Virus record (IMG/VR): IMGVR_UViG_3300026557_000002
Coordinates: 1 to 64,000 of that record
Reading direction: 5' to 3' (one strand)
Source of the DNA: a virus
DNA: 64,000 bases
Shown: positions 9,155 to 25,790 of the stretch, one piece after another
Numbering within the stretch: position 1 is the stretch's first letter
How the letters are laid out: each line of letters opens with the position of its first letter
The notes under the pieces: model-generated
What the model was told of the DNA's origin: nothing
What the model saw: only the letters and a program-made list of their open reading frames with translations
The model's database searches: none
Made by a program: the position numbers and the translations under genes

Positions 9155-9173
9155 TTTTATTTCTGCTCAGCGC

Positions 9174-9258: not shown

Positions 9259-9281
9259 CAGTGAGCAGAAAAGATTTTTAC

Positions 9282-9359: not shown

Positions 9360-9366
9360 TTTCAAT

Positions 9367-9441
9367 ATGAGAGTCGTTCAGCGGCTAGGACGTCGGACTC
9401 CAAACCCGACTACGGTGGTTCGAGTCCATCCTCTCATGCCA
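9367..9441 (+). tRNA. tRNA-Trp(CCA)
   Basis: ATGAGAG/CTCTCAT acceptor; loop CTCCAAA; GCCA. Confidence 0.88.
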
Positions 9442-9454
9442 TATTCGAGGGCCC

Positions 9455-9874: not shown

Positions 9875-9975
9875 AGTAGTATGAAGATACAAAAGTCAAG
9901 TCGATCCTCATCATCGGAATCTGCGAGTATGATGGAGGGTTGGCTGAGCGGCAAGAACGTTCACAAGACTTCAAT

Positions 9976-10051
9976 TGCCAAATGGCGCAATCGGTAGCGC
10001 AGGGGTTTCTGAAGCCCAAGGCTAAAGGTTCGAATCCTTTTTTGGCATCCA
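9976..10051 (+). tRNA. tRNA-Gln(CTG)
   Basis: TGCCAAA/TTTGGCA acceptor (U1-A72), loop TTCTGAA, T-loop TTCGAAT, CCA. Confidence 0.85.
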
Positions 10052-10073
10052 TTTTTATAATCACGAATAACTC

Positions 10074-10469
10074 ATGTCAGTTGCAACCCCGACAGCGATG
10101 TATACAATTAATTTCGCCATCAATCCGCTAACGATAGCGGGCGCTTGGCCCCAGGTGACTCCGAACGGCGTCGCCCCACAAAATTTAGATCTGATTCAGA
10201 TCGTCGGTTTCGGTGGACCCATCCTTCTCAACGTAGACTCCGCTGGTGTCGTACATAATCCCGCTGTTAATCCTACAACTTCGGCCGGCGGTATCGGCCA
10301 GACTCGCATTGGTCAGTTTCAATCCCGCTTGACATCCTCTGCAACAACCGCGCAACTCTTTGCAGACGCGTTCTCGAATCCCTCCAATCTGGACATCATC
10401 CAAGTAATCAATGAAGGCGGCAACGTTCATTACAACCTGAACTTTCAGGGAGTAGCTGCGGGTTCTTGA
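10074..10469 (+). CDS. Putative virion protein with an internal duplication
   Basis: NLDLIQIVGFGG..LNVDSAGV and NLDIIQVINEGG..YNLNFQGV. Confidence 0.7.
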   Translation: MSVATPTAMYTINFAINPLTIAGAWPQVTPNGVAPQNLDLIQIVGFGGPILLNVDSAGVVHNPAVNPTTSAGGIGQTRIGQFQSRLTSSATTAQLFADAFSNPSNLDIIQVINEGGNVHYNLNFQGVAAGS

Positions 10470-10593
10470 TAGTCTCTCGGAGGCTATACGTGGGAACGTC
10501 TTTGTGCAGTCTGTAAACTCCTACTTCGAAAGAATTCAGGAGAGATAAAAGTTTGCCCCGCGTGTGGTTGGCGCTGGCTGTAGGAGATTTAAA

Positions 10594-10977
10594 TTGGCTA
10601 TTTCGCAAGTAGAAGTCGCATCACCCGCCGGATTATTTGTCTTCACAGATACCGCGATGGGCAACACCGCAGATGGTATCAAGGCGTCTTCGGCTAAACT
10701 GTATTCGGTTCAGATCGACAACTCTGCCAACGGCGGAGCAGCGAGCTACGTCAAGATTTACAATTTGGCCAGCGGTTCTGTAGTCGTTGGAACCACGGCC
10801 CCCGACGAGATCATCTATGTTCCCGCCGGCGCAGTCATTACGCAATACTTTTTCACGGGTGCTGCAGCAGGTAAGACTTTCGGAACCGCGTTGAGTGCGA
10901 TCTGCGTAACCACGGGCGGCACGGCCGGCTCGACTTCACCGGTTAGCGCTGCGGTTGTGACCGTTTCGTATGTATAG
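10594..10977 (+). CDS. Putative virion/decoration protein
   Basis: TTG start after AGGAG; Ala/Gly/Thr-rich beta protein (YVKIYN...VGTTAPD...VPAG...F..ALS). Confidence 0.7.
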   Translation: MAISQVEVASPAGLFVFTDTAMGNTADGIKASSAKLYSVQIDNSANGGAASYVKIYNLASGSVVVGTTAPDEIIYVPAGAVITQYFFTGAAAGKTFGTALSAICVTTGGTAGSTSPVSAAVVTVSYV

Positions 10978-10984
10978 AAAAGAC

Positions 10985-11098
10985 TTGACAAACTAGCAGT
11001 ACTGTAGTACCATTGACTTATCCCTCGGGGTTGCTCCCGAGGTTTAGACTCGGGGGATGCCTAGTACATTCCCCTTGTCGTCTTACTAGGAGAATGGA
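10985..11098 (+). promoter_or_regulatory. sigma70 promoter plus kissing-loop leader (copy A)
   Basis: TTGACA-17-TACCAT; hairpin loop CCTAGTA (11060-11066) is complementary to TACTAGG (11084-11090), the loop of the SD hairpin. Confidence 0.75.
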
Positions 11099-11587
11099 AT
11101 GAGAACCAAAATCAAAGGTTTATGCGGCCATTGTAGAACAAAATTAACAGAACAGAACTGTGCGCCTGTTATATTTCAGAGCGGATATGGTTTTTGTCGG
11201 GATTGCAGAAATGAATCCAGCCGCCTAAGATATAGGCGTGATCCGGAGCCCCAAAAAAGTAGATCATCTCGATGGCTAGCAATTAAAGATAATCGAAATA
11301 GTCGAACTAAGTCTGTTGTTGCTTGGCGTCGTAAGAAAGATTTCGGTATAACTCAAGAACAATTTGATGCTAAGTTTAAAGCACAAAATGGTCTTTGTGC
11401 TATCTGTAAGCAGCCTATGTTAGGGCAAGCAAGAACAAAAGTCCCGTGCCAAGACCACGACCATAAATCTGGAAAATTAAGAGACTTAATATGTATCAGC
11501 TGTAATCTTCTTTTAGGGCACAGCTATGAGAACAAAGAAATTCTTGCCAACGCTGTTTTATATTTAGAAAAACACGTCGGCATTTAA
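11099..11587 (+). CDS. Endonuclease VII-family (His-Me) free-standing endonuclease
   Basis: FGITQEQF...Q.G.CAIC...DHDH.SG..R.LIC..CN..LG motif. Confidence 0.88.
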   Translation: MRTKIKGLCGHCRTKLTEQNCAPVIFQSGYGFCRDCRNESSRLRYRRDPEPQKSRSSRWLAIKDNRNSRTKSVVAWRRKKDFGITQEQFDAKFKAQNGLCAICKQPMLGQARTKVPCQDHDHKSGKLRDLICISCNLLLGHSYENKEILANAVLYLEKHVGI

Positions 11588-11693
11588 AAATTTTGGTTAA
11601 AGCGCTAGCACGTTCAAAGCGCTCTTCCCATAAAAAGCGCCCCGCCGACGGTGATCCTGCCGACTGGACGTACACATAAAGGAAAATTGAATC

Positions 11694-12374
11694 ATGAGTA
11701 ACACACTGGATTTTTCAGTAAATGGACAGCTCGCGTCGAAGGTTGGCGGAACTGGAACCACAATTAAGTATTTCCCGCGTCTGGTTGGCATCAGCGGAAC
11801 CACGATTGGGTCTGCGGGTCTCGGCGGAGTCAGCGGCAGCTCTGTTGTTGGTCCCCTGTACGGCAACTCGCCGTCCACGCCTTCGTCCACGAGCGCTGTC
11901 GGAGCACTGTTTATCCCAGCCGCGAACGTCTATAACGGGCAGCAGATGAATATCGTTATCAGCGGAAACGTTGGTTCGGATACCGGTGATCCATCTGGAA
12001 CAGTAAATGTCCAAGTGCAAGCCGTTACTGGAGCTTTGTTGGCTCCGACGTACACCACGATTGCGTCCACTAGCGCTCTGGCTTTGACCTTTGCTTCGGC
12101 TGAACCTTGGCTTTTCGATATCACTATGATCGGTGATACCTCATCCGGCATCCTGGTTGGCAACTATACGTCGATGCTCGGCAATACCCTTCACACGACA
12201 TCGGGCACCGTGGCCGCCGCAGCCCTTGACAACGTCATCGCTAAGCTAGATTTCGCGAACGGAAACCCCGCTCTTCAACAAGGCGCAGTATTTGGCTTGG
12301 TCGTCGGTGTGACTTTCGGAACCTCGGACGCAAGCAACAAGGCGACCTTGTCCCAGTTCACAGTCGAAGGATAA
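11694..12374 (+). CDS. Putative virion structural protein (Gly/Ser/Thr-rich)
   Basis: RBS AAGGA; composition; followed by a terminator. Confidence 0.7.
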   Translation: MSNTLDFSVNGQLASKVGGTGTTIKYFPRLVGISGTTIGSAGLGGVSGSSVVGPLYGNSPSTPSSTSAVGALFIPAANVYNGQQMNIVISGNVGSDTGDPSGTVNVQVQAVTGALLAPTYTTIASTSALALTFASAEPWLFDITMIGDTSSGILVGNYTSMLGNTLHTTSGTVAAAALDNVIAKLDFANGNPALQQGAVFGLVVGVTFGTSDASNKATLSQFTVEG

Positions 12375-12390
12375 TTACCCGTTAACCATG

Positions 12391-12415
12391 GGGCTCTTCG
12401 GAGCCCTTAATTTTT
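12391..12415 (+). terminator. Intrinsic terminator
   Basis: GGGCTC-TTCG-GAGCCC followed by TTAATTTTT. Confidence 0.75.
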
Positions 12416-12496
12416 CCGTGGCGGTACGCCAGACATTGCTGGCGACCCTCGGCGTGCGAAAACCACAGCAAGGGTAGTAATAGCCTATCCAACTCT

Positions 12497-12727
12497 ATGA
12501 CGGATGATAACAAAGAAGTCTTAAAAGCGATAACAGAATTAACCAAAATTGTTGAACTATATCATGGCGACTTCCGAGAATTCCGCGGCGAGATTAAAAC
12601 GAAAGTTGAAAGTCTCGAGGGCAGCGCTAAGTCTGATAGGATGTGGTCGAGAATCCAAGCCGTCGCGGTAGTCCCTGTAGTTGGTACACTCCATCAGATT
12701 GCGCAGTATCTTCACTGGATTAAATAA
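12497..12727 (+). CDS. Small coiled-coil protein with hydrophobic C-terminus
   Basis: ORF packing and composition. Confidence 0.6.
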   Translation: MTDDNKEVLKAITELTKIVELYHGDFREFRGEIKTKVESLEGSAKSDRMWSRIQAVAVVPVVGTLHQIAQYLHWIK

Positions 12728-12910
12728 ATGCCGTTCGTATCGTCAGCACAACAAGGTTACCTTCACGCCCATCCCGAAGTTTTGGGAAAGGAGAAGTTAG
12801 CGGAGTTCGATGCTGCGACAAAGGGCAAGCACGATCTTCCGGAACATGTCCATAACGGGAAGCCGTCTTATAAAATAGCCCGCGAGGCCAGAAAAGAATC
12901 AGGGAGTTAG
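12728..12910 (+). CDS. Small phage protein (MPF.S.AQ type) with YKIAREARK motif
   Basis: Abuts its neighbours; shared motif. Confidence 0.7.
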   Translation: MPFVSSAQQGYLHAHPEVLGKEKLAEFDAATKGKHDLPEHVHNGKPSYKIAREARKESGS

Positions 12911-12911
12911 C

Positions 12912-13580
12912 GTGGCCGATAAGCTAGTACAAATAGAACCGGCTTCCGGCGTACAGAGATGGGCGCTAGCGTTCGTCGGCGGCAAAGATACAGGCGACCA
13001 GCCGAAGTCTTGTTTTAACTGCCCCTTCCTGTATATCAATCAGAAGCGATGCCAGATTCACGGGCCGGACATCATCATTGACCGAGTTACGAAAAACGGT
13101 CAGGTTTATACGCCTGTTTGTTGTTATCAAAAAGGCGGAACTCCTCTCGCGGTAGGAGATGACGTAGTCGTCTATAACGTCAACACGACCGGTGATAAGG
13201 CAGCGGACCAAACGGGTTTGGAGTGGGCAAAATCCCCGACTGGAACGAACTGTGGCGGATTCAAGCAGGGTGCAGATTGCGAGCACTTTGTTCCCGCTGA
13301 CGATAAGGGAATCGACGGGCTCTGTAAGCTGATGTCCAAAGAGCAGGACGAAGCCTCCGACGCAATGTCTGAGCACAAAGGTCAAAGCGTCGATTGGGAC
13401 GACTGTTGTGACGGGCACGAAGGCGAGAATATATCTTGGCGAGAAGCACAGAAGCTAATGCCAAACAAGGCCGAGTTGGGACTAGAACATTTTTTGAGTC
13501 CAGGACAAAATAACCCGGTTAAAAAAGAAGATTCCGAGTATGTACGCGCTCGAGCGATACGCAGAGCAAAACAGGAGTAG
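12912..13580 (+). CDS. Cys-rich protein with two putative metal/Fe-S-binding modules
   Basis: CFNCPF...C...CC and C......C..F...GLC...CC. Confidence 0.7.
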   Translation: MADKLVQIEPASGVQRWALAFVGGKDTGDQPKSCFNCPFLYINQKRCQIHGPDIIIDRVTKNGQVYTPVCCYQKGGTPLAVGDDVVVYNVNTTGDKAADQTGLEWAKSPTGTNCGGFKQGADCEHFVPADDKGIDGLCKLMSKEQDEASDAMSEHKGQSVDWDDCCDGHEGENISWREAQKLMPNKAELGLEHFLSPGQNNPVKKEDSEYVRARAIRRAKQE

Positions 13581-13582
13581 TC

Positions 13583-13897
13583 ATGAAAGAAGTCCAAAAA
13601 GTAGATCATAAGTCGGTCGAGCCTGAAGCAGCTTTGGGTAATCCTGGGCGCTTTTCCGGTAACGGCGGTCTTAAGGCATCCGGCTTAAAGCAAGCCGAGA
13701 CAGAGAATACCACATCCGACGGAGGTTCCGATTTGGAGTCTCTAAGGCAGGGTTCGAAGCCTAAGCCTGAAGCCGTACGAGAAGTTAAGGAAGACACTTC
13801 CTGTGGACCTCGCGCCCGCAAGGCGTGGCAGGCGGCAAATGGCGATGAGGGAGTTTCTCGTCACAGTAACATCGCGAAAGAAGACGCAGCGATTTAA
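13583..13897 (+). CDS. Hydrophilic hypothetical protein
   Basis: RBS AGGAG; shares a motif with 3678..4034. Confidence 0.7.
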   Translation: MKEVQKVDHKSVEPEAALGNPGRFSGNGGLKASGLKQAETENTTSDGGSDLESLRQGSKPKPEAVREVKEDTSCGPRARKAWQAANGDEGVSRHSNIAKEDAAI

Positions 13898-13900
13898 GGA

Positions 13901-14170
13901 ATGAACATGGAAGGCAAATCTCCAGTAGCGCACCACGGATTCACGCATACCACCGTCCACCACCATGCGGACGGGTCGCACACAATCCAGCACCACCACC
14001 ACGAAGGTCCACACAAGGACATTCATCACGCAGTCGCGGACCACGACGGAATGATTGACTCGATGATGGATCACACCTCCGCTCCTAATCTCGGTGAAAC
14101 ACAGGCCAATGCTGGGCCGCAGGCCGCTCCCGCGGGTATCCCCGGCGCCGCACCAGCCGCAGGAGCCTAA
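13901..14170 (+). CDS. His-rich small protein
   Basis: HHGFTHTTVHHHADGSHTIQHHHHEGPHKDIHH. Confidence 0.72.
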   Translation: MNMEGKSPVAHHGFTHTTVHHHADGSHTIQHHHHEGPHKDIHHAVADHDGMIDSMMDHTSAPNLGETQANAGPQAAPAGIPGAAPAAGA

Positions 14171-14171
14171 G

Positions 14172-14360
14172 ATGGCAAAGCACAACGTAAGTCTTTATCG
14201 TGCTATGCACCACCTCCGAAAAGGAGGCCTTCATCGCGCGCTGGGAATTTCAGAGGACAAATCAATTCCATCAGAAAAATTAGAGATTCATCCAGACGAT
14301 AGTGCGCATTTGAAGCACATGAAGTCCTTCGCAAAAACAATGGGCGGGTTCAAGCACTAA
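14172..14360 (+). CDS. Small basic phage protein
   Basis: ATG at 14172 after AGGAG; KGGLHRALG.....IP..KL motif. Confidence 0.7.
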   Translation: MAKHNVSLYRAMHHLRKGGLHRALGISEDKSIPSEKLEIHPDDSAHLKHMKSFAKTMGGFKH

Positions 14361-14629
14361 TGATTCTGAAGGACAAAGTAGCCAAGGTTCTCGAGAGCGG
14401 AATATTTACCCCAGTTTATCACGCGTTCGGTGGGCTGAGCGAATTTTGGGCCGTTGTTTTTGGCTCCGCCGCTATTATCCTAGCCTTCAGAGGCAAACTT
14501 GATCCTAACTTTGCTCTGGCAATTACTGCGATTCAGGGGTTGCTTTGCGCTCATGACGCGCTAGATGATTACCACGCTCGTCAGACGCAAAACACGACCA
14601 TCGTAAACGATATAAGTATTCAGAAGTAG
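14360..14629 (+). CDS. Small membrane protein (holin-like candidate)
   Basis: Two hydrophobic segments. Confidence 0.55.
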   Translation: MILKDKVAKVLESGIFTPVYHAFGGLSEFWAVVFGSAAIILAFRGKLDPNFALAITAIQGLLCAHDALDDYHARQTQNTTIVNDISIQK

Positions 14630-14683
14630 GCAACTCGCTCCGAACACGGCATCACGCGCGACGCCAGACCCAAGGTAAGCAGC

Positions 14684-15400
14684 ATGAAAATAATTCGCGG
14701 ATTGCTACTAGTAGCACTCTTGGTTTTTGGAAGCGTGCCTACTTATGCAAATAAGAAGCATCAAACAGCGATGCTGTCGACTTTCGTTCTGTACGGTAAT
14801 TCCGCACAAGCCCAAGTTGTTGGTAAGCCTCTGTGTACAGCCTTCGTTTATAAGAAGGCGCCAGACGGCTATTACCTGATGACGGCCGGACATTGCTTCG
14901 TCGGAAACGGCGCGCCCCCGGATGTGACTTACTCAGTCGTCAGCGGTCAGATTACAGACAAGCCAGACTATCAGCCCGTCGAACTTCTAAATGCTGTTGA
15001 CGACGGCAAGATGGATGTTGCAGAAGTTCACTTGAAGACTTTGAAGCAGTATCCGATCTTGGAGTTGCAAGACGCCCCAGTAGCGATCGATGACAAAGTT
15101 TTCTATGTCGGCTATCCGGAGATGATTACTCAGGCGGTTTACACCGGACGAGTGGGTAGTCAAATAATCCCGAAATCATGTGACGACGTAGACGGCGATC
15201 TTTGCACCGGACGATTTTTGGTGCAAACAGGCGGTGGCCCAGGAGCCAGCGGCTCCCCGGTTATGAGCGAGAGAACTGGAAAGGTAGTCGGAATTTTAGA
15301 AGGGCATGTTTTTGAAAATGGCGTAGTCGTAGTTCCTTCTCCCGCAATCGACGGGTATTATGCGCGAGTCGGACACGCAGTAAAACCAAAAAACGAATAA
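14684..15400 (+). CDS. Trypsin-like serine protease with signal peptide
   Basis: TAGHC (His), DVA (Asp) and GASGSP (Ser) catalytic motifs; N-terminal signal sequence. Confidence 0.88.
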   Translation: MKIIRGLLLVALLVFGSVPTYANKKHQTAMLSTFVLYGNSAQAQVVGKPLCTAFVYKKAPDGYYLMTAGHCFVGNGAPPDVTYSVVSGQITDKPDYQPVELLNAVDDGKMDVAEVHLKTLKQYPILELQDAPVAIDDKVFYVGYPEMITQAVYTGRVGSQIIPKSCDDVDGDLCTGRFLVQTGGGPGASGSPVMSERTGKVVGILEGHVFENGVVVVPSPAIDGYYARVGHAVKPKNE

Positions 15401-15521
15401 AGCGAGGAGATAACCCGATGCTACTTGTCGCCGGCTGTTTTGTATCCATGTTTGCTTTTGGATTTTTGTTCGGCCTGGGTTTTCAACTCGCAAAGAAAGT
15501 CATTAAAGCATAAGAGGACGT

Positions 15522-15770
15522 ATGGCAACCAACTCAGTCGAAGCCACGCTAGCCGGCGCCAAGAGCGCCTTGGCTAATGCAAACAAGTTCACGCAGAGCG
15601 TAACCGGTAACGCCACAGACGCTTTCGCTCCAAAGAAGCCAACGGCCCCCAAGATTCCTCAGACTCACAGAGAGGCGCCGTATTCTCTAGCCCGCCAGGC
15701 TCGCGAGACCGGCGAAGGCGTCAAGAATAGGATGGAGAACGAGAACGCAGGTCTCAAGACTCTAGAATAA
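15522..15770 (+). CDS. Small protein with YSLARQARE motif
   Basis: RBS GAGG; directly upstream of TerL. Confidence 0.7.
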   Translation: MATNSVEATLAGAKSALANANKFTQSVTGNATDAFAPKKPTAPKIPQTHREAPYSLARQARETGEGVKNRMENENAGLKTLE

Positions 15771-15791
15771 GTTCAATAGAATGGGATTTCA

Positions 15792-17999
15792 ATGCCCTTT
15801 ACCGACCGAGAGAAGAAAGCAAATCAGCGAGCCCGACAAAAAGGTTTGCCAGAACCGTATCAAACAGGATCTATTCCGTCCGCCGCGAGTATAGAAGAAC
15901 GTCTCGGTCAACATGAGCAGGATCTAGCTTTCGCTTTACAGCAGGATGCGCAGCCCGCCTTTTATAAAAGTGAGTGCCGTCCTTGCGTCAAGCTTCTAGC
16001 AATCTACGAAGGCCTAGCTCTCCAAGAAGAGGAAGAAGACGAGAGCGAAGATGACACCGAAGTCAAGAAGAGAAAGAGAGTAGCCAAGAATACCAAGGGT
16101 CCGAATCCGTCCATTACTAAAATCACGATTCCGGAAATCGAACGCTTGAACGATGCGATTGATCCCAGCGTTGACGAAATTGTTTCATTTCGCCGTTGGC
16201 TTGATCTCCGAGACAAAGCCCGCAAGGATCTTTACTGGCTTTGTAAGATGCTTGGCAAAGATTTATTTCCTGACGTTCATCAAGTGATCTGCGATCAATT
16301 CGTTTCAAAGAGTTTTGACGGGATGTATCATAAGAATTATACGCTGGGGCAATTCCACCGTATGATTGATGCTCAGATCCGCATAGATGCATCAGGTAAT
16401 CCGACAAAAGAAATGATGTTGTTGGACTCCCGTGGCTTCTATAAGTCAACGATCAACGGTATCGATTGCGTCAGCTGGCACATTAATTGCCCCGACGCAC
16501 ACATTTTTATTCTGACGGGCGAGTACAAACTTGCGGTTCAGTTCTTGCAAGAAATCAAGGATTACTATTATTTCGCCAAGGGCTCTGAACCCAGCCCCTT
16601 TCATCTTTTGTTTCCTGAGTACGTACTAACAGGCGTCAAAGGCACGTCTAAGCAGCCTATGAAGTGTCCTGCTCGAGTCCTAAAACAGAAGGGCAACAGC
16701 CTCTGGGTTAACGCTATTGTGGCGAACCTGTCTGGTTGGCACTGCGATATCAAGAAAGGCGATGATATCGTCACCGACGAGAACTCGAATAATGATGACG
16801 CTCGTGCGTCCATCAAATCTAAGTACGACGGAACCGACGACCTTCTAGACCCGCACGGATTCTCGGATCACATCGGCACCAGATACTTTTCATCGGACTG
16901 GTACGGCACGCGCCTCCAGCCTGACGAGGATACGAAAGAATTAGCCTCTATCAAGTATTTCAAGCGTGGGTGCTGGACCGTAAAGCCGGAGTACCGCGAC
17001 ACCTCGTTAAAGATGCTGACGTTCGAGATGGTCAATCTGACCTTCCCGCAACTTGGCAAGACGCCCAGAGAAGCGTTTAATAAACTCCGTCAGAAGCTAT
17101 TGAAGAAGGCGGATAAGAAGAATAAGAACCCATATCGCGCGTTCTGCAACCAGCAGTTGAATGAGCCTACGGATGACAACGAGGATTCGGGTTTCGTCAT
17201 TCACTTCAGTAAAGAAGTGATTAACGCGCACACCCATCCAGCCCAAGCGGTTCCTGTAGACGGAGAGGTTTTCATTCTGTGGGACTGGGCTTTGTCTGAC
17301 AAGAAGACATCGGATTATTCGGTCGGGATAGCGGTCAAAATTTATAAAAAAACGAACGGGCAGTACGCCGTTTATGTTCTGGAAATAATTTACGATAAGT
17401 GGAAAGACTCTGAACTAGTTCGCCAGATGATTGCTTTCTATAAAAAGTACAAAGGCTTGGGCCAGTTCAAGCGTATGTATGTCGAGAATTCTAACGGCGG
17501 CGAGTTACTCAAGACCGCTCTTCAGAACGCAGCCTACAAGTTGAACGCTTTAGATATGATGGGCGAGAATGTGATCTGCTGGATTCCGGTAGATACGCGA
17601 GCTAACGCCAAGCGTAACCGCATCAAGTCGATCGAAACCCTCCTAGACGATGACCGTCTAGATTTTGTAGACAGCTCGTTATACATGGAAGAGGTTATCA
17701 AGCAATTGACGCAATACACAGGCGAGAAGAGTACCGCGTTCCGCAAGGATGATATCCCGGACGCTTTATCGTTCCTCGTTTATCCTTTGCCAGCGATCGC
17801 ACTTCAGATTGACGTCAGTACTGAAGAAGTAGAAAAAGAAATGGAGACTCGTCGCCGGGAAGAGCAGAGCAAGGCGGCATATAAGCAGATGTTCGGCGGG
17901 CATAATCCTTTGCCAGCTAAGCCGACCTCAGCCGAGCCAGCACAAAAACCCAGAGACCCTCGTCTAGCCTTATTCGGCGGCAGCGGCTGGCGCATGTAG
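15792..17999 (+). CDS. terL: Terminase large subunit
   Basis: SRGFYKST Walker A, KGDDIV Walker B, IGTRY coupling motif, WDWA...DYS and DDIPDALS nuclease motifs. Confidence 0.93.
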   Translation: MPFTDREKKANQRARQKGLPEPYQTGSIPSAASIEERLGQHEQDLAFALQQDAQPAFYKSECRPCVKLLAIYEGLALQEEEEDESEDDTEVKKRKRVAKNTKGPNPSITKITIPEIERLNDAIDPSVDEIVSFRRWLDLRDKARKDLYWLCKMLGKDLFPDVHQVICDQFVSKSFDGMYHKNYTLGQFHRMIDAQIRIDASGNPTKEMMLLDSRGFYKSTINGIDCVSWHINCPDAHIFILTGEYKLAVQFLQEIKDYYYFAKGSEPSPFHLLFPEYVLTGVKGTSKQPMKCPARVLKQKGNSLWVNAIVANLSGWHCDIKKGDDIVTDENSNNDDARASIKSKYDGTDDLLDPHGFSDHIGTRYFSSDWYGTRLQPDEDTKELASIKYFKRGCWTVKPEYRDTSLKMLTFEMVNLTFPQLGKTPREAFNKLRQKLLKKADKKNKNPYRAFCNQQLNEPTDDNEDSGFVIHFSKEVINAHTHPAQAVPVDGEVFILWDWALSDKKTSDYSVGIAVKIYKKTNGQYAVYVLEIIYDKWKDSELVRQMIAFYKKYKGLGQFKRMYVENSNGGELLKTALQNAAYKLNALDMMGENVICWIPVDTRANAKRNRIKSIETLLDDDRLDFVDSSLYMEEVIKQLTQYTGEKSTAFRKDDIPDALSFLVYPLPAIALQIDVSTEEVEKEMETRRREEQSKAAYKQMFGGHNPLPAKPTSAEPAQKPRDPRLALFGGSGWRM

Positions 18000-18038
18000 T
18001 TTCGCCTTCTGTTCGCCTAAAATAGTTTAAAATAAAGC

Positions 18039-18144
18039 TTGACAAATCGATAAAGTCGTGGTATACTGGTTAAAGATGTTGTAGCTACAATTTGGTTGGG
18101 GCGGCCTTTACCCGCCCCGATCACCCCTGTAAAGGAGGGGAGAG
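18039..18144 (+). promoter_or_regulatory. sigma70 promoter plus kissing-loop leader (copy B)
   Basis: TTGACA-17-TATACT; loop CCTTTAC (18105-18111) is complementary to GTAAAGG (18129-18135) in hairpin CCCCT/AGGGG. Confidence 0.8.
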
Positions 18145-18798
18145 ATGTTCGTATATTTAATCACAAATAAAATTAACGACAAGAAGTACGTTGGTCAACA
18201 TTCTGGAGATGACCTTCAGAAGTACTGGCGTCGTAATGTTGTGTGGGCTCTTCATAACCAAGGGCAGAAGCGTTGTCTTTATTCAGCTATTAGAAAATAC
18301 GGTCCAGAAAATTTTGAGATCAAGCCTCTTGTTATTGTTGGGACAAAACAAGAGATGGATTATTACGAGCGCTATTTAATAGTAGACTTTGGCACGCGAG
18401 CACCGAACGGTTACAATTTGACGGATGGCGGAGAAGGAACCCCCGGTCACGCAGTTTCCGAAGAGGGTCGCCGAAAGATGTCGGTTAAAAGTAAAGGACG
18501 GGTTAGTAAATTAAAAGGCATTCCCAAGTCTAAAGAATCTAATCAGAAAAATTCAGAATCTCATAAAGGAAAGGTTCTTTCAGATAAACACCGAAGAAAT
18601 ATATCTTTAGGGCGGATTGGTAGCAAGCATTCTGAAGAAACTAAAAAGAAAATGGCGGAATCCGCCAAACGAGATTGGGAACGAAGAAGAGCGTCTGGCT
18701 ATATAGTATCAGAAGAAACTAAAAATAAAATGTCCGTCGCGCATTTAGCACGAAGACAAAAAGAGATTAATGCCGGAGAATCTGGAGCAACGAGTTAA
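18145..18798 (+). CDS. GIY-YIG homing endonuclease with NUMOD3 repeats
   Basis: FVYLITN.IN.K.YVGQ, GYNLTDGGEG, repeated HSEETKKKM-type motifs. Confidence 0.92.
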   Translation: MFVYLITNKINDKKYVGQHSGDDLQKYWRRNVVWALHNQGQKRCLYSAIRKYGPENFEIKPLVIVGTKQEMDYYERYLIVDFGTRAPNGYNLTDGGEGTPGHAVSEEGRRKMSVKSKGRVSKLKGIPKSKESNQKNSESHKGKVLSDKHRRNISLGRIGSKHSEETKKKMAESAKRDWERRRASGYIVSEETKNKMSVAHLARRQKEINAGESGATS

Positions 18799-20878
18799 TG
18801 AACTCTTTATCACTCCTGCGGCAGAAATCACAGAAGAAAATACCCAAGTAGACCCAGATACAAATACCATACAACTGAATGACGAAGCTTCTGTTTTGCT
18901 CGTATTGCAAAATACCGAGAAAGCAGATGAGTATATTAATGTCCAGCAGTGGGCGAGCGGGTGGACAATGGCTGATCTGTTGTATCAATCGCCAGCGTCT
19001 CAGTCCGCTTTCGACGGCGGAAACGTCGGGCAGGCTTCCGTCCCGAAATTTATGGTAAGTAGTATCGTTTCTGCTATTGTTCCAAAAGTTATGGGCGGAA
19101 TTTTTTATGAAGATCCGCCGTTCTTGCTGCGTCCTCGTCCGTCCGTAGAAGCGGATGTTATCCGCGCCAAGACCGCGATATTCTCTTCTCAACTAGGCGC
19201 GATGCGTTTCGAAGAGCAGGTAGAGCGCACTCTTGATCAAGCCGCTTTGCTTGGCACCGGTATCATGAAGTGGGGGTATACCGAGCGTGTCAAGAAGATG
19301 AAGAAGTATAAGCGCAAGGGAGACAAGGTCTCCGTTGGCCAGCCGGAAGGCGGCGTCGCTAAGTTTGATTCTCCAGATTCTGACGACTTTGAAATAGAGT
19401 TTTACGACAAGATTATTTCGCATCCCTGGATCCGCTTTACGGATATTAGAACGGTTCTGGTCAATCCAGGCTGTCGCGTCGGCGACATTAGAGAAGCGGG
19501 CTGGGTAGTCTATAGAGATTATGCAACCTATTCTGACCTAGACAAGCTGCGCGGGTACGAAGGCTACGTCATCCCCGCAGAAGATGTTCTTAGACACGTC
19601 TTCGCTGAAGGCATTACTTCCGGCCCAGATAACATTACTATGACGTTGCCAGAAGGTATGCTTGGATATCTCCAGCACGCCCTACCTCGCAGCTATAAGA
19701 CGTCGGCAGATCCGAACTCGGCACCGATGGAGATGCTCGAGTACTGGGATGACGAGAAAGTCATTGTCGTGCTCTGCTTCAATGGGCATAACGTCCTGAT
19801 TCGTAATGAAGCGAATCCGTACGGAAAGATTCCCTTCTATAGCTTTAACTGGCGCAATATCCCCGATTGCTTTTATGGTCAAGGCCTAGGCCTATTGATC
19901 GGCTCAGAACAGATCGTTGAGCAAGGCGTCACGAACTTAGCGCTTGACTTACTAGCGTACGGGCTACAGCCGACCGCTGTACGCAAGAAGGGATTTAATA
20001 CTTTGACGCAGGACGTTCGTTGGCGCCAAGGCGGGATTATCGACGTTGAAGAAGACGTCGACAAGGCTTTCAAGTTCCTGCAGATGCCCCCTGTTCCAGG
20101 AGAGGCGTGGCAGTTTATCCAGCAGGCGCAGAGTGCTGGCGCATCCACGTCAGGCGCAAACGAACAGGTTGTCCAAGGCGCAGGAGCTATGGGCGTTCGT
20201 TCAACTGGTATGCGATCAGGAACCGGAGCGGCCGCGGTCATCCAGGCTAATGCATCTAGGCTCGATGGTCCGGACGGGCGATTTGTCCGTCAGGTATTCG
20301 AACCGTGGTTGTACCAGATGGATGATTTGAATAACGACCTTCTGCCAACGTCGGTTATTCGCGACGTTTTAGGTGAGGAACTTGGTCCGGCCTATATGGT
20401 TGATCATATCAAGTTCCGTGAAGCCAAGATTGAATACGAAGTTCTCGCGGGCGCGAAGCTCGGGGCAAAGAAAGAAATGTCCCAGGCTCTGCCTATCATT
20501 ATTCAGTTGCTGAATAACCCGACCTTCGTGGCTAATGCTAACGACGCGGGATATCAGTTCGACGCTCCAGCCATTTTCAAAGCGTTTACTGACGCCGCAG
20601 GTTGGAAGTTTAGCCAGAGCTTCTTGCGTAAGATGACTCCTGAAGAGAAACAGAAGCACGACGCTAATTCGCCGGCTGCTTTGCAGCAAGCCCAGATCGC
20701 GAACAATAATAAGCAGATGCAAGCCAAGTTTGAACAAGAACAGACTCTAGAAAATCAGAAGCAGCTCGGCAAGGCCGCTAACCAAGGCTATCGTACAGCC
20801 ATCGAGCACGCGACCCAGTCCGAGTTGCAAGAGGGCCAAGCTGGTAATACGGGCGAGTTCTCAGAAACGGCTTTATAG
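18770..20878 (+). CDS. Portal protein
   Basis: 702 aa after TerL; GTGIMKWG, NPYGKIPF, FYGQG motifs and a Gln-rich C-terminal tail, as in P22/N4-like portals. Confidence 0.88.
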   Translation: MPENLEQRVNELFITPAAEITEENTQVDPDTNTIQLNDEASVLLVLQNTEKADEYINVQQWASGWTMADLLYQSPASQSAFDGGNVGQASVPKFMVSSIVSAIVPKVMGGIFYEDPPFLLRPRPSVEADVIRAKTAIFSSQLGAMRFEEQVERTLDQAALLGTGIMKWGYTERVKKMKKYKRKGDKVSVGQPEGGVAKFDSPDSDDFEIEFYDKIISHPWIRFTDIRTVLVNPGCRVGDIREAGWVVYRDYATYSDLDKLRGYEGYVIPAEDVLRHVFAEGITSGPDNITMTLPEGMLGYLQHALPRSYKTSADPNSAPMEMLEYWDDEKVIVVLCFNGHNVLIRNEANPYGKIPFYSFNWRNIPDCFYGQGLGLLIGSEQIVEQGVTNLALDLLAYGLQPTAVRKKGFNTLTQDVRWRQGGIIDVEEDVDKAFKFLQMPPVPGEAWQFIQQAQSAGASTSGANEQVVQGAGAMGVRSTGMRSGTGAAAVIQANASRLDGPDGRFVRQVFEPWLYQMDDLNNDLLPTSVIRDVLGEELGPAYMVDHIKFREAKIEYEVLAGAKLGAKKEMSQALPIIIQLLNNPTFVANANDAGYQFDAPAIFKAFTDAAGWKFSQSFLRKMTPEEKQKHDANSPAALQQAQIANNNKQMQAKFEQEQTLENQKQLGKAANQGYRTAIEHATQSELQEGQAGNTGEFSETAL

Positions 20879-20900
20879 AATAGAAGTCTAAGGATAACCA

Positions 20901-21332
20901 ATGCCAGAAACAACAGAAAGAAAACCGCTTCTGCAAGACAGTTTGACGCAAGTCCAACGAATCGTTTTGGGGCAAACATACCATAGCCCCGGGTTCAATG
21001 TCGTCATCAAGTTGATTGAGGCCATGTGTGATGACGCCCTGGCGTATACCACAAAGCTGGATCCAGAAGAAGAGGGTTATGAACGCAAGCTAGCGGTTCG
21101 AACCCAGAGAGCCCGAAACATTAATGAAGCGGCTGCCATCCTTCGGGATTCTATCAAGTACCATCTTGACATGATCGTGAAACAGGATGCTGAAGAGAAT
21201 CAAGCGGCTGAAGCAGCGGTCGGCAGGGTAATCGGAATTCATTCAGCCGTAGGTGGTCAACCGATTGACGCCATTCAGAAAACGTTTGGTATTCATCCGG
21301 CAAAACCTGTTAAAAAGAAAGAAGTGAAGTAA
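20901..21332 (+). CDS. Hypothetical head-module protein
   Basis: Between portal and scaffold; RBS AAGGA. Confidence 0.7.
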   Translation: MPETTERKPLLQDSLTQVQRIVLGQTYHSPGFNVVIKLIEAMCDDALAYTTKLDPEEEGYERKLAVRTQRARNINEAAAILRDSIKYHLDMIVKQDAEENQAAEAAVGRVIGIHSAVGGQPIDAIQKTFGIHPAKPVKKKEVK

Positions 21333-21376
21333 TCCCGTAAGGGCGTAGCAGAATCAATACTAATACAGAGGACACA

Positions 21377-22708
21377 ATGAACGTCGATACAGTACTTGAC
21401 CTAGAGTGGCTGAGGTCCGCCACATTTGACGATTTGCAAGCGGCAGCGCGCTTATCTTCGCAAGACAAATCTAAGTTGACAGAACTTAATGCCACACTGG
21501 CTAGTCCCGAAGGCAAGGTTATTGCTCAGGACATGAGCCAATGTATTCGAGCCGGAAAGGCTTATGTTCCGCCAGCCATCCCACCAGAAGCGGTAGACGA
21601 AGAGGAAGCAGCCCAGATCGCCGCGGATACCGCGCGAGCAGACGCTGAAGCCGCAGAAGCCGAGCGTATTGCCGAAGAGCAGCGAGCAGTACTGGCGCCG
21701 GTTGTAGCGACCGCAGATCAAGAGGCCGAGTCAACCGAATTGGCCAAGCTCGGGATCGCGCTTCATAAAGATTCCGCTGGCAATATCACCAAGATTGTCC
21801 AAGACTACCAAGTCAAAGATGACGCGGGTCGCCCGATTGGCCGTCCGACACATCTTGAGGCAAAGTCCTGGCCCGAACTGGTTTCAAAGCAGAAGGCCGC
21901 TCACGAGAACGCCGTGCGATATGCCGAGAGAACAAAGCAGAATCAATTAAAGAGCAGAGACATTTTGGCACAGACAGAGCAGGTGACCCAACAGGCCACC
22001 AAGGCTCGAGCGGAAGCCGATGAAGCCGTCGCTGAAGCAGCCAAAGAACCCGCCAAATTAGGCGAGGCACTTCGTAAGGTCACACACGCGGAAAGCAAAT
22101 CTGTCGAGGCATCGCGCACAGCCGCAGAAAACCAGATGACAATTGTCAATGACTGGTTAGCTGACCACGAACACAACTATTTGAATTGTCAAGCGAACAC
22201 CGACATCATTGGGGCCTGGCTGAAGGAAAATAACCGGAAGCTGTCTTATGAAAATCTCGACGTCGCTTTCAAGGCAAACGAACATCGACTAGCAAAGCCA
22301 ATAGCTGATCTAGTCGCAGAACCCGCCGTAGTAGCGCCTAATGCGCCCACTCCGGCACCCGCAGCTCCTGTTCCAGTCCCGTCGGCAATACCGGCACCTG
22401 TTATAGTGAGCACGGTTCCAGCATCTACGCCAGCCCCCTCGGCATCTCAGCCGGTGGTGGCAGCGCCAGTAGTCACGCCTGCAGCGGCGACAAATACGCC
22501 AGCTGCCCGTAGACCTGGGGTCAACGGTTCACTCCCTCCCGGAACGCTAACTGCAGCGCGTCCTAGCGTGGAACAGAAACCGCAAACGACCACAAGAGCC
22601 GCATTACTGAAGGCTATTAACAAAATGTCCTCAACTGAATACCGCCAAAAGCTGAAAACCTCGGCCGAATTCCGAGCCCAGCATGACGCGGTGGGCATAG
22701 CCTATTAA
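21377..22708 (+). CDS. Putative capsid scaffolding protein
   Basis: Ala/Glu coiled coils, Pro/Ala linker, C-terminal MS..EY.. helix, immediately before the MCP gene. Confidence 0.7.
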   Translation: MNVDTVLDLEWLRSATFDDLQAAARLSSQDKSKLTELNATLASPEGKVIAQDMSQCIRAGKAYVPPAIPPEAVDEEEAAQIAADTARADAEAAEAERIAEEQRAVLAPVVATADQEAESTELAKLGIALHKDSAGNITKIVQDYQVKDDAGRPIGRPTHLEAKSWPELVSKQKAAHENAVRYAERTKQNQLKSRDILAQTEQVTQQATKARAEADEAVAEAAKEPAKLGEALRKVTHAESKSVEASRTAAENQMTIVNDWLADHEHNYLNCQANTDIIGAWLKENNRKLSYENLDVAFKANEHRLAKPIADLVAEPAVVAPNAPTPAPAAPVPVPSAIPAPVIVSTVPASTPAPSASQPVVAAPVVTPAAATNTPAARRPGVNGSLPPGTLTAARPSVEQKPQTTTRAALLKAINKMSSTEYRQKLKTSAEFRAQHDAVGIAY

Positions 22709-22752
22709 TCGGACGGGTCCGTAAAGGATCACATTAGAGACTAGAGGTCCAT

Positions 22753-24368
22753 ATGTCTGGACCAAATCCAAGCGGCAATAACGTTTCAAACGTTTTGACC
22801 GCACAGGCCATTTTGTTCGATAAGGAGCTCATCCCGAACCTTTTTAATGGGGTCACTTTAATATAAAAGTGAGAATTTTCTCTAATTGACTTGAACGCTG
22901 TGAAGCCAACAAGGGGCAAGCGAAAGCAGCCTGAGAGACTAAACGAGAAAACGCCGTAAGGCGATGCGATAGTCCGTTCTAACGAGAAAAAGAATCGTTA
23001 GCTAACACATAAGCAAAGGTGAGACCGATGCGTTCGTAGCAGTCGCCGAACGCCGTGTGCAAGGCCTGCACATGGGCATTAACCGCCAGTTCTTCCAGTA
23101 TAACACCATCGCTGGTGACATTATACAGAACGCTGACGGCGTAGTTGGTTCGCCAGAAGTTATTTCGCAGATTTCCGCTCCGGCCCAGGTCGGTGAATGG
23201 AACAACTACGGTAACTTCTCGGCATTCAGCATCGCTTCTTCCATCGACGAACTCGTTGGGAACAGCGCGGTTGAACTCGGGTATCAGGCTGGACAGAGCA
23301 TTTCCGAACTGTACAGCGCCGTGGCAGACAGCGCAGCCTCGGTTGACGGTAACGTTAACCAGTCCGCTCTGTTGAGTTCGCCCTTCACTCTCGACTTGGC
23401 AACAATTCGTGAATTGAAGCAGCAACTTGTTAGCGCATCTGTTCTTCCTTGCAAGCGCGGGAAGTACATGGGCGTTATCAGCCCCAACGTCCTAGGAGAC
23501 ATTTACAACGCAACGACAGTGAACAACTCGATCGTCGATTTGTGGAAGTACTCCAACGGCGAGAAGTTTGACGCAATAGCTGGTGCAGATCAGACCATGG
23601 AAATCGAACTTCCCGGAACGAACATCGTGTTCCGTCAGACCCCATTCGTAACCAAGACCGCGAACTTCAGCGCAGGTAAGACCGCATACAGAACATACGT
23701 ATTCGGCAACTACGCGATGATCGGTGTGTGGCTCCAAGTTCAAAATGGACTCCTAGCAGCGTAATCTGCTAGTAGAAAATTCTCTCTGATTGACTTGAAC
23801 CCTGAAATGGGAACAAGGCGCAAGCGAAAGCAGCGTGAACGACTAAGCGAGAGAACACCCTTCGGGGTGATGCGATAGTCTGCTCTGTATCAAAAAGAAA
23901 GATACAGAGGTTGGCAGAAATGACCAACCCCGCGAAAGCGGTAACAAACGGCCCGGAGACACAGATATGGATGAGGGAGACTGGCGTACAATCGACTGTA
24001 GAGTCGTGACCGATGCTCCTCCGTCTTCGTATGATCCTGTCGCCACAATCGGCGGTTGGGCATCGTATAGATTCCATTAAAAGTCCGGTGGAATTAAAAT
24101 TTTCTCTAATTGACTCGAACGGTGAGAATCCCAACGAGGCGCAAGCGAAAGCAGCGTGAGAGACTAAGCGAGAAAACAGCGAAAGCTGATGCAATAGTCC
24201 GAGCACCCAGAAAAATGAACTGAGTGAGGTTGACAGAAATGATCAACTCCGCCGCAAGGTGAGTAACAAAAATAAGGGAGTGCGTCGCAGACAGTGACAC
24301 TTCCTCCGGCAACTGGAACGAATACCCAGCGTACTCGTTTCATTGACTCGGTTCCCGCAATTCAATAA
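22753..24368 (+). CDS. Major capsid protein (N4-gp56-like), spliced from 4 exons: 22753-22841, 23014-23740, 23952-24077, 24288-24368 (340 aa)
   Basis: RBS GAGG then MSGPNPSG...DKELIPN|L KGETDAF...ELGYQAGQSI...IGVWLQV|PGDTD...YDPVATIGGWASYRFH|QTVTLPP...IQ*. The joined exons total 1023 nt and are in frame. Confidence 0.88.
22842..23013 (+). mobile_element. Group I intron 1 in MCP (172 nt, no ORF)
   Basis: 5' exon ends in U paired to IGS GGGGT; P3 TTTTCTC/GAGAAAA; P7 GACTA/TAGTC; terminal G. Confidence 0.85.
23741..23951 (+). mobile_element. Group I intron 2 in MCP (211 nt, no ORF)
   Basis: P1 AGTT|C with GGACT (U.G at the splice site); P3 TTCTCTC/GAGAGAA; P7 GACTA/TAGTC; terminal G. Confidence 0.85.
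24078..24287 (+). mobile_element. Group I intron 3 in MCP (210 nt, no ORF)
   Basis: P1 ATTCCAT/GTGGAAT and the same core. The 3' splice site at G24287 is favoured by partial P10 pairing; alternative in-frame Gs lie at 24278 and 24284. Confidence 0.82.
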
Positions 24369-24373
24369 ACCTC

Positions 24374-24466
24374 TTGACATAAGCAACCGCTTATGCTAGA
24401 GTTGCATCAAAGTAGGTTGGGGATGTGCCAGTAACACATCCCTGACCGACTCTTACTGGAGAGTAG
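24374..24466 (+). promoter_or_regulatory. sigma70 promoter plus kissing-loop leader (copy C)
   Basis: TTGACA-17-TAGAGT; loop CCAGTAA (24428-24434) is complementary to TTACTGG (24453-24459) in hairpin ACTCT/AGAGT. Confidence 0.8.
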
Positions 24467-25045
24467 ATGACGAAGTTAATTGATTTACAAGGTCGAAGAT
24501 TCGGTCGTTTAAAAGTAGAGCACCGATATTTAGACCACATTACTAGCGGCGGAAATATCGTTGTAATGTGGGAGTGTTTTTGTGATTGTGGAAAGATAGT
24601 AGAAGTCTCCTCAAACTCCCTATTACAAGAAAAAACAAAATCTTGCGGTTGTCTATCCTTAGAATTGACGAAGGCGGTCGGCCTCGCTAACAGAAAGCAC
24701 GGTGGATATTCTGATGCGTCGCCTTACGCAGATCGAGTTAAGTATCAGGCGCTAGTCAATATTAAAGAGCGGTCCCGCCGTCGCGGGTACGAGTCCGATT
24801 TAGATTTACAAGATTTGCCAGAACTTACAGATGTTTGCCATGTGCTAGGGCTGAAGTATAACAAAGGTTCTTTGAAGGACAAGAACGCATCTCCTTCTGT
24901 TGATCGAAAGAATTCAAACCTGCCGTATTTGAAGAAATACAAGGACAACTTAGTCTTTATATCCCATCGGGCAAATCGCATTAAATCTGATGCTAGTATA
25001 GAAGAGATTAGGAGGGTCCTAGAATACCTAGAAACAAAAGGATAA
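24467..25045 (+). CDS. HNH-type free-standing endonuclease
   Basis: DL.G.RFGRL.V...W.C.CDCG...KSCGC N-terminal module; SPSVDR....Y..DN...IS..AN..K nuclease motif. Confidence 0.85.
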   Translation: MTKLIDLQGRRFGRLKVEHRYLDHITSGGNIVVMWECFCDCGKIVEVSSNSLLQEKTKSCGCLSLELTKAVGLANRKHGGYSDASPYADRVKYQALVNIKERSRRRGYESDLDLQDLPELTDVCHVLGLKYNKGSLKDKNASPSVDRKNSNLPYLKKYKDNLVFISHRANRIKSDASIEEIRRVLEYLETKG

Positions 25046-25047
25046 TA

Positions 25048-25719
25048 ATGGCCGTAGATAATCGTATTCAGACAAGAGACGGACTCAAAGATGTAGACCA
25101 ACCGTGGAAAGAATTTCACGATGTCAGCACGACCGAAGAGTCGGTCGCCAAGATGCTGGCGGACGGTACGCCAAATTGGGTCAAGTGGCCGGCCGATTAT
25201 AAGGAATACGCTCGAGAAGAGTTTCAGAAGCACCGCGAAGACAGTGAGTTTGGTGCTCAAGATTACAAGATTGAAGACCAGGCCGAGTTAACCAACAAAG
25301 TCGCCCGAATGGTCAACCCGATGAGCACGCGAGATTTCATCGCAAAACTCCGCCGGAATGGCGTCAAGTGCTTCACCGTAGATAACGGCTTCCCGCCGAA
25401 TACCGTGGCTCTATGGTGTTTGCCCCCGAACCTTATGTCAAGAGCGAGGTACATTTGTTACGCTCAGGTCCCAGCCATGTATGAGTGGTCCGTCTTGAAG
25501 ACTGACCGTTATGGTAAGCCGATGGGCGAAGACTTTCGCGGATGGCGAACAGTGGCAGTCCAGCTGATTGAGAAAGAGATTCTGACCGAGGCACAAGTCA
25601 ATAAGATTTTCGGCAACGCAAGCCACAATAAGATGTTCCGTCGTTATCATCGAAGCCTATGGGAGATCAGGAACCGCAAAAAGTTCTCTGAAGTCCCGAT
25701 AGCCAATAACGACATCTAA
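25048..25719 (+). CDS. Hypothetical protein
   Basis: 223 aa, coupled to the upstream gene. Confidence 0.75.
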   Translation: MAVDNRIQTRDGLKDVDQPWKEFHDVSTTEESVAKMLADGTPNWVKWPADYKEYAREEFQKHREDSEFGAQDYKIEDQAELTNKVARMVNPMSTRDFIAKLRRNGVKCFTVDNGFPPNTVALWCLPPNLMSRARYICYAQVPAMYEWSVLKTDRYGKPMGEDFRGWRTVAVQLIEKEILTEAQVNKIFGNASHNKMFRRYHRSLWEIRNRKKFSEVPIANNDI

Positions 25720-25790
25720 TAGCAAATCCGCCCTCCGCCTTCAGAGCAGTATATCCAAGTTAGGCACAATCTGAAGTAAAGAAGTCAAAA

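Follow-up and report, generated by a model that had tools for sequence, protein, structure and literature searches.

A structured RNA leader of roughly 50 nucleotides (nt), made of two adjacent hairpins with mutually complementary loops, was identified ahead of three free-standing nuclease genes in a 64,000-nt stretch of DNA, hereafter the window, which corresponds to positions 1 to 64,000 of the IMG/VR record IMGVR_UViG_3300026557_000002 and belongs to the genome of an uncultured soil phage (97,153 bp in total, called G000). The three copies of the leader, named A, B, and C, precede genes encoding an Endonuclease VII (EndoVII), a GIY-YIG, and an HNH-type protein, respectively. The leader is a real, widespread RNA family, in which stem 1, stem 2, and the helix formed between the two loops all covary. 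Its anatomy and the analogy with the leaders of T-even phages suggest that its effect is most likely the translational repression of the nuclease gene.

Distribution of the leader family

An earlier note on the window, in which the three copies were described, had proposed that phage and metagenome data be searched with a covariance model. The IMG/VR database was searched with the three proteins and the flanks of the matches were scanned, which gave about 20 further copies, and a covariance model (R1) was built from 15 copies. Model and pattern scans together yielded about 100 distinct copies, carried by soil and peat phage contigs. Phages of 80-120 kb harbor one to six copies each; R1 detected 5-6 copies in each of five related phage records of 82-119 kb and 1-3 in four more. 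The R1 matches obtained without preselection for complementarity (L014, L033, L003b, and L080) were found to have exactly complementary loops. The consensus of the family reads GGGGnGUG[CCnnnAA]CACnCCCC, a linker of 0-10 nt, CUCU[UUnnnGG]AGAG, 4-8 nt, and AUG.

Megablast of positions 10000-26000 against cultured phages gave no match, and the closest terminase among cultured phages is that of Tunturiibacter phage Tunturi_3 (24% identity), in which the R1 scan detected no copy of the leader. A leader followed by an HNH-type gene was also observed at L277:4209-4248, on a 36.7-kb contig (CABMCB010000038.1) binned in a metagenome-assembled genome (MAG) labeled "uncultured archaeon"; the contig is probably of phage origin and was mis-binned. 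A match to a WOR-3 MAG in the scan of genome collections is probably due to chance, and that scan gave no clue to the host.

The leader, which the earlier note did not recognize as a described RNA motif, has no counterpart in Rfam: the scan of the whole window against Rfam 15 at gathering thresholds returned only tRNAs, and a scan of positions 10900-24600 at permissive E-values returned nothing at the three leaders. No description of the leader was found in the literature searched, and it may still be present as an unnamed entry in the IMG/VR structured-RNA catalogue (PMC10690425). What is new is the architecture of the leader, its portability, and its breadth, the sequestration of the Shine-Dalgarno (SD) sequence on homing endonuclease mRNAs being already known.

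Covariation of the stems and of the loop-loop helix

Covariation was analyzed on a model-based alignment of 74 distinct copies; MAFFT alignments mis-registered several copies. Paired cells amount to 98.5% in this alignment vs. 78.9% in shuffles, none of the 500 shuffles matched any of the observed measures, and in slid controls the pairing dropped to 47-60%. Changes on both sides of a pair were found in all eight pairs of stem 1, in five of the seven loop-loop pairs, and in three of the four pairs of stem 2, and G-U pairs are present in stems 1 and 2 across the family.

An independent pattern was used in which the conserved flanks were fixed and the central three positions of both loops left open, so that a complementary triplet has a chance of 1/64 per copy. 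All 41 distinct matches in IMG/VR carry reverse-complementary triplets, and when the metagenome and genome collections are included the count is 74 of 75 distinct matches, with 18 different triplets. The single non-complementary match, which has neither stem 1 nor an open reading frame (ORF), is a chance match to the pattern. The covariation expected in the earlier note was thus borne out both by the alignment shuffles and by the free triplets. The loops also covary in length, 69 copies having two loops of 7 nt and 4 copies two loops of 6 nt. The number of different complementary loop pairs in the family is 37 or more, and in every copy the sequence GGAG lies at the boundary between loop 2 and stem 2, 4-8 nt 5' of the start codon.

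The three copies in the window

The features of the three copies, all of which lie on the + strand, are as follows.

10985-11013 (+): promoter-like site of copy A; TTGACA at 10985-10990, 17 nt, TACCAT at 11008-11013
11023-11042 (+): extra 5' hairpin of copy A, CCTCGGGG/TCCCGAGG, then TTTAGACT
11052-11074 (+): hairpin 1 of copy A; 8-bp stem with one G-U, loop CCTAGTA at 11060-11066; R1 score 53.2 bits
11081-11093 (+): hairpin 2 of copy A; TCT/AGA stem, loop TACTAGG at 11084-11090, SD GGAG at 11089-11092
11099-11587 (+): gene of copy A; Endonuclease VII domain, 162 amino acids (aa), PF02945, E 6e-18
18039-18067 (+): promoter-like site of copy B; TTGACA, 17 nt, TATACT
18079-18090 (+): palindrome TTGTAGCTACAA of copy B, just 5' of hairpin 1
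18093-18123 (+): hairpin 1 of copy B; 12-bp stem with two G-U, loop CCTTTAC at 18105-18111
18124-18140 (+): hairpin 2 of copy B; CCCCT/AGGGG stem, loop GTAAAGG at 18129-18135, SD GGAG at 18134-18137
18145-18798 (+): gene of copy B; GIY-YIG + NUMOD3 nuclease, 217 aa
24374-24402 (+): promoter-like site of copy C; TTGACA, 17 nt, TAGAGT; spacer inverted repeat ATAAGC..GCTTAT
24415-24447 (+): hairpin 1 of copy C; 13-bp stem with two G-U, loop CCAGTAA at 24428-24434; R1 score 46.2 bits
24449-24464 (+): hairpin 2 of copy C; ACTCT/AGAGT, loop-1 complement TTACTGG at 24453-24459, SD GGAG at 24458-24461
24467-25045 (+): gene of copy C; HNH-type nuclease, 192 aa, phrog_374 E 6e-20, phrog_3322 E 4e-17

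The sequences quoted in the earlier note are all present at the positions of A, B, and C: at each site TTGACA-17-TAnnnT is followed by two hairpins, the second of which ends 2-5 nt 5' of the ATG, the loop-2 segment is the exact Watson-Crick reverse complement of the 7-nt loop 1, and the GGAG straddles loop 2 and stem 2. The description as two adjacent hairpins with 7-nt loops holds overall, except that in copy C the maximal stem 2 (ACTCT/AGAGT) absorbs the first T of the complement, which leaves a 6-nt loop. Stem 2 is short in copy A (3 bp), and the two hairpins of copy B abut with a 0-nt linker. Both hairpins were recovered by RNAfold at the three sites, and since stem 1 carries G-U pairs in A, B, and C alike, the structure is read on the RNA of the + strand.

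Throughout the 97,153-bp genome, a stem of at least 8 bp closing a 7-nt loop with an exact Watson-Crick complement within 30 nt occurs only in copies A, B, and C. Shuffled genomes, with G-U pairs allowed, contain about 2.2 such sites each, none of which lies at a start codon. The protein of copy C has no match in Pfam and matches HNH/endonuclease families in PHROG. The extra 5' hairpin module of copy A was also found ahead of the leader in another phage genome (G002, loci L100/L106) and in others. A cluster of ten tRNAs lies just 5' of copy A (window 8010-10048, + strand).

Downstream nucleases and mobility of the cassettes

The association of the leader with nuclease genes of different families, first noticed at the three sites of the window, extends to the whole family: the copies precede 72 distinct proteins, almost all of which are free-standing nucleases. 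These include 24 GIY-YIG proteins, mostly with NUMOD3, EndoVII proteins (18 according to Pfam, as many as 29 according to PHROG), several HNH types including AP2-HNH, and one VRR-NUC protein. The same loop word (e.g., CCAGTAA) and the same leader subtype can occur ahead of different nuclease families. The claim that the three nucleases of the window are unrelated was overstated: EndoVII and HNH enzymes share the His-Me finger fold according to the established fold classification, whereas across the family the GIY-YIG proteins and the single VRR-NUC protein do have truly unrelated folds.

Two nuclease-domain genes of the source phage genome that do not have a cassette of their own are leaderless: one, at 7177-7629, is an HNH gene, and the other, with an EndoVII domain, belongs to a minus-strand operon. 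The leader therefore marks self-promoted cassettes. The GIY-YIG gene of copy B sits between the terminase (15792-17999) and portal (18770-20878) genes. At this junction the two genes abut, with nothing between them, in G001, G002, and G005, and the junction is filled by a leader and a GIY-YIG gene in the source phage and by a leader and an HNH-type gene in G003. The fact that the same junction is either empty or occupied by different leader-nuclease cassettes indicates that the unit is a mobile insertion and that the leader moves with different nucleases, so that the portability proposed for the covarying loop-loop leader is upheld both by the range of nuclease families and by the occupancy of the junction. 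As is the case with free-standing homing endonuclease cassettes, these units bring their own expression signals and are present or absent between conserved genes. From their sequences, the three genes of the window appear to be mobile cassettes, each of which combines a promoter of its own with a structured 5' leader and a free-standing ORF of predicted nuclease activity.

Nineteen of the 74 cassettes, including copy C, lie directly after one conserved gene end (...ATTCA(G/A)TAA; e.g., window 24340-24366 and the flanks of L001, L010, L081, L137, and L168), which points to an insertion hot spot after that gene; its occupants in different phages are GIY-YIG, EndoVII, or HNH-type genes. At two loci, L129:1501-1567 (G003:3640-3706) and L131:1501-1539 (G004:13831-13869), hairpin 1 is intact and there is neither a complementary second hairpin nor an ORF; these orphan copies are either decayed cassettes or free hairpin-1 genes. 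Elsewhere in the window, at 37010-37396 (+), a TTGACA-18-TACAAT promoter runs straight into an ORF with a NUMOD3 motif (PF07460, E 4e-10), in which no catalytic domain was found and ahead of which there is no leader; it looks like the remnant of a nuclease cassette. A T5orf172/MUG113 (GIY-YIG-like) gene at 930-1457 (-) has a consensus promoter at 1475-1503 (-) and lacks the double-hairpin leader.

Promoters and upstream modules

The earlier note regarded the promoter as part of the unit. TTGACA-17-TAnnnT is indeed present at all three copies in the window, where TTGACA-N16-18-TAnnnT occurs 11 times vs. 1.1 expected, but a sigma70-type promoter was detected in just 34 of the 74 copies of the family. 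Upstream of the remaining copies there is either the palindrome TTGTAGCTACAA or a hairpin accompanied by TATACTAATCA or by TAGACTT. The promoter thus often accompanies the RNA element without being obligatory for it. In the 34 copies that have it, the -10 box ends about 10 nt 5' of the core stem, so that hairpin 1 would be located at the 5' end of the mRNA. The promoter-like sites all lie 5' of hairpin 1, and the stretch from hairpin 1 to the SD yielded no promoter consensus. Hairpin 1 was also considered as an intrinsic terminator and rejected in this role, as there is no U-run 3' of it in copies A, B, and C.

Two palindromes recur upstream of the leader. The palindrome TTGTAGCTACAA (or TTGTACGTACAA) is located 3-10 nt 5' of hairpin 1 in 11 of the 74 cassettes (e.g., L123, L126, L125, L141, and L165) and occurs only once in the source phage genome; it may be a promoter element or a site bound by a protein. 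In 20 of the 74 cassettes (e.g., L010:2900-2950, L081, and L153), the palindrome GGTTGCAACC (core GTTGCAAC) lies between the -35 and the -10 of the sigma70-type promoter and may be the operator of a shared repressor; the spacer of copy C (window 24380-24396) contains a different inverted repeat instead. A search for the word GGTTGGGG gave counts at chance level and was hence uninformative.

Geometry and predicted energies

Among 73 copies, stem 1 measures 6-17 bp and stem 2 measures 4-6 bp, the latter closing exactly the complement of loop 1 in 69 of them. The linker (0-10 nt) is shorter where stem 1 is longer (r = -0.63) and is at most 2 nt long in 28 of the 73 copies, the distance from loop to loop is 16-21 nt in most copies, and stem 1 and the loop-loop helix amount together to 14-24 stacked base pairs. 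The predicted energies range from -11 to -21 kcal/mol for hairpin 1 and from -0.2 to -7.5 kcal/mol for hairpin 2 (about -2.5 kcal/mol in a consensus copy), and that of the loop-loop duplex is about -7 kcal/mol; the values predicted for the duplex and for hairpin 2 are similar in copies B and C.

The sterics of these 73 copies were assessed with a lower-bound A-form helix model, which is rough and includes no 3D prediction. According to this model, a kissing complex with both stems intact in one molecule, which the earlier note had envisaged, can be closed by the linker in only 4 copies and cannot be closed in the other 69. An H-type pseudoknot in cis, in which hairpin 1 and the loop-loop helix are formed and stem 2 is open, is feasible in 59 copies as long as stem 1 stays intact, and fraying of stem 1 to 10 bp would make it feasible in all 73. 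Since the intact-stem kiss is not closable in cis in most copies, either hairpin 2 alternates with an H-type pseudoknot in which stem 2 is open, or the pairing is intermolecular. Stem 2 and the loop-loop helix are both selected, yet would, judging from the model, be mutually exclusive in cis. In every state the SD is engaged: its GG lies in the closed 7-nt loop or in the loop-loop helix, and its AG in stem 2 or beside the helix.

Possible modes of action

The reading which we regard as probable, with moderate confidence and on the basis of the anatomy, is that hairpin 2 and a cis pseudoknot would form a two-layer lock on the ribosome-binding site, which would hold the translation of the nuclease at a low level. 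We infer both the pairing in cis and the order of folding. Hairpin 2, which is weak and carries the SD, would form first and fast; the loop-loop helix would next capture the SD and, as stem 2 opens, produce an H-type pseudoknot that stacks on hairpin 1; the entry of ribosomes would be rare, and little of the potentially harmful nuclease would be made despite the strong promoter. Several points weigh against this lock. Stem 2, which covaries and closes precisely the complementary 7 nt, has to open in cis; a plain pseudoknot could do without such a stem. By the lower-bound estimate, 14 of the 73 copies have a linker that could not accommodate the pseudoknot without some fraying at the base of stem 1. 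The loop-loop helix includes no G-U pair in about 215 variable cells, though the stems tolerate G-U; this absence of wobble fits a strained kissing helix, but is unusual. Lastly, SD-adjacent pseudoknots can also activate translation, as in IncI-alpha repZ, and the sign of the effect of the leader is therefore not proven.

Alternatively, the loops may pair between molecules, the leader being a dumbbell whose two loops cannot meet in cis, which we consider to be a possible but distinctly less likely explanation. Two identical mRNAs might form a symmetric double-kissing dimer or larger chains, or else a processed or short hairpin-1 RNA might kiss hairpin 2 of the full-length mRNAs; in both cases all three helices would coexist at any linker length, the SD would be locked more tightly as the mRNA accumulates, and the result would be a cassette-specific dosage brake. 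It is conceivable, although doubtful, that each cassette has a private 7-nt "address", the accumulating mRNAs self-associating or binding free hairpin-1 RNA and so shutting down their own translation. The few copies in which a cis kiss with both stems intact is closable, the many linkers of at most 2 nt, and the covarying stem 2 that closes exactly complementary 7 or 6 nt, as would be expected if it coexisted with the loop-loop helix, all argue for pairing in trans, as do the orphan hairpin-1 copies without a hairpin 2 (L129 and L131) and the natural precedents of trans-only loop pairs, phi29 prohead RNA and bicoid mRNA (PMC7357161). No loop is duplicated within a genome vs. 3.6 duplicates expected (P about 0.02), which is a weak test, as the sampling was uneven and in 7 loop pairs the difference amounts to a single base. 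Pairing in trans is not forced, however, the cis pseudoknot being sterically possible in most copies, and the narrow range of loop-to-loop distances looks more like a cis constraint or shared ancestry. Kissing between mRNAs is not known to act as a regulatory mechanism in bacteria or phages, which also counts against it.

It seems improbable that the leader is mainly an element of mRNA stability or processing, the overlap with the SD being secondary. The position of the sigma70-type -10, which would place hairpin 1 at the 5' end of the transcript, would suit protection against 5'-end-dependent decay, and the 14-24 stacked base pairs of stem 1 and the loop-loop helix would suit RNase III cleavage of a stacked helix of about 15-25 bp, as at the processing sites of phage T7. 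For stabilization, however, hairpin 2 would be superfluous, as would a covarying 7-bp loop-loop helix in which the GG of the SD is invariably contained, and a stem 1 varying from 6 to 17 bp is unsuited to a length-measuring RNase III site. We think it likewise rather improbable that the equilibrium of hairpin 2 and the pseudoknot responds to a small ligand, to temperature, or to a phage or host protein (e.g., a Rop-like protein that binds kissing complexes), so as to time the synthesis of the nuclease during infection. The existence of two mutually exclusive cis conformers, both apparently selected, and the similar predicted energies of hairpin 2 and the loop-loop duplex in copies B and C are in keeping with a sensor of this kind, and the guanidine-II riboswitch likewise consists of two small tandem hairpins with kissing loops (PMC7357161), but the loop letters vary freely apart from CC..AA/UU..GG, which leaves no conserved ligand pocket, and no conserved protein gene was seen beside the cassettes, where no systematic search was made. 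A feature acting at the DNA level, whether an inverted repeat bound by a protein or a site of recombination, is hardly credible, and neither is a chance resemblance. The strictly Watson-Crick complementarity of the loops would be compatible with a DNA element, whereas the G-U pairs in both stems can form solely in the RNA of the + strand, no protein site shared by the copies is compatible with the variable triplets, and an identical loop (e.g., CCAGTAA) precedes different nuclease families; chance was rejected on the basis of the 74 complementary free triplets out of 75.

Comparison with known systems

The homing endonuclease genes of T-even phages (I-TevI, I-TevII, I-TevIII, and segB, as well as mobE of Aeh1) carry RNA structures that sequester the ribosome-binding site and limit translation (PMC2988022), and the soil-phage leader resembles them in being an RNA structure that buries the SD ahead of a putative homing endonuclease gene. 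The T-even leaders are single nested hairpins with a late promoter inside the structure, so that the late transcripts lack its 5' arm, whereas in the soil-phage leader the promoter is 5' of the whole structure and no internal late promoter was detected. The SD straddles here the loop and the stem of a weak hairpin (-0.2 to -7.5 kcal/mol), its main hold would be the non-nested, covarying 7-bp loop-loop helix, and a single leader family spans many nuclease families and about 100 cassettes.

Fully complementary loops of 7 nt (or 6 nt) in which every base is paired occur in the ColE1 RNA I/RNA II and TAR/TAR* complexes. The leader has likewise two stem-closed loops of equal length which are complementary throughout, but the ColE1-type complexes are intermolecular antisense pairs that control replication, whereas both loops of the leader are on one mRNA and one of them bears the SD; the two stems and the loop-loop helix could coexist in one molecule in only 4 of the 73 copies according to the helix model. 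Nanorings based on RNAI/II are cited in PMC7357161, as are phi29 prohead RNA and the 3' untranslated region of bicoid mRNA, in which two mutually complementary loops on one RNA pair in trans to give dimers or rings. The latter RNAs serve in packaging or localization, pair through 4-6 bp, and involve no ribosome-binding site; in the soil-phage leader, pairing in trans is a possible but less likely mode.

The guanidine-II (mini-ykkC) riboswitch also consists of two small tandem hairpins 5' of the start codon, whose kissing loops control translation (PMC7357161). It has conserved ACGR loops, which bind a ligand and are joined by only two C-G pairs, whereas the leader has seven pairs with freely covarying centers and no conserved pocket; its loops are CCnnnAA and UUnnnGG instead of ACGR tetraloops, and the Rfam models do not match it.

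In the SD-sequestering H-type pseudoknots of the preQ1-II, preQ1-III, and SAM-II riboswitches, as well as in the pseudoknot of IncI-alpha repZ/IncB repA, the loop of a hairpin is paired with sequence farther 3', at or beside the SD; the repZ pseudoknot promotes translation, and an antisense RNA counteracts it. As in these H-type pseudoknots, loop 1 of the leader pairs, with covariation, with a downstream segment that overlaps the SD, and the connecting loop is long enough to cross stem 1 in 59 of the 73 modeled copies with the stem intact and in 73 of 73 with the stem frayed. The riboswitch pseudoknots depend on a ligand, whereas no ligand, leader peptide, or antisense partner is evident in the case of the soil-phage leader.

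Implications for phage nuclease cassettes

These data add to the structured RNAs a well-supported family outside Rfam, with about 100 distinct copies and covariation in all its helices. Selfish nuclease genes of very different folds share here one portable leader, a probable module of expression control, which extends the idea of the ribosome-binding-site-sequestering hairpins of T4 to a loop-loop architecture in soil phages. The selection of both stem 2 and the loop-loop helix, which would exclude each other in cis, constitutes a structural puzzle; if the loops were to pair in trans, the dosage of selfish genes would be limited by a brake made of RNA alone that senses concentration, and nature would offer dozens of orthogonal loop pairs for it. 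The 37 or more natural complementary loop pairs might serve as orthogonal RNA-RNA connectors or as tunable translation locks, and the leader provides a practical marker for mobile nuclease cassettes in phage metagenomes.

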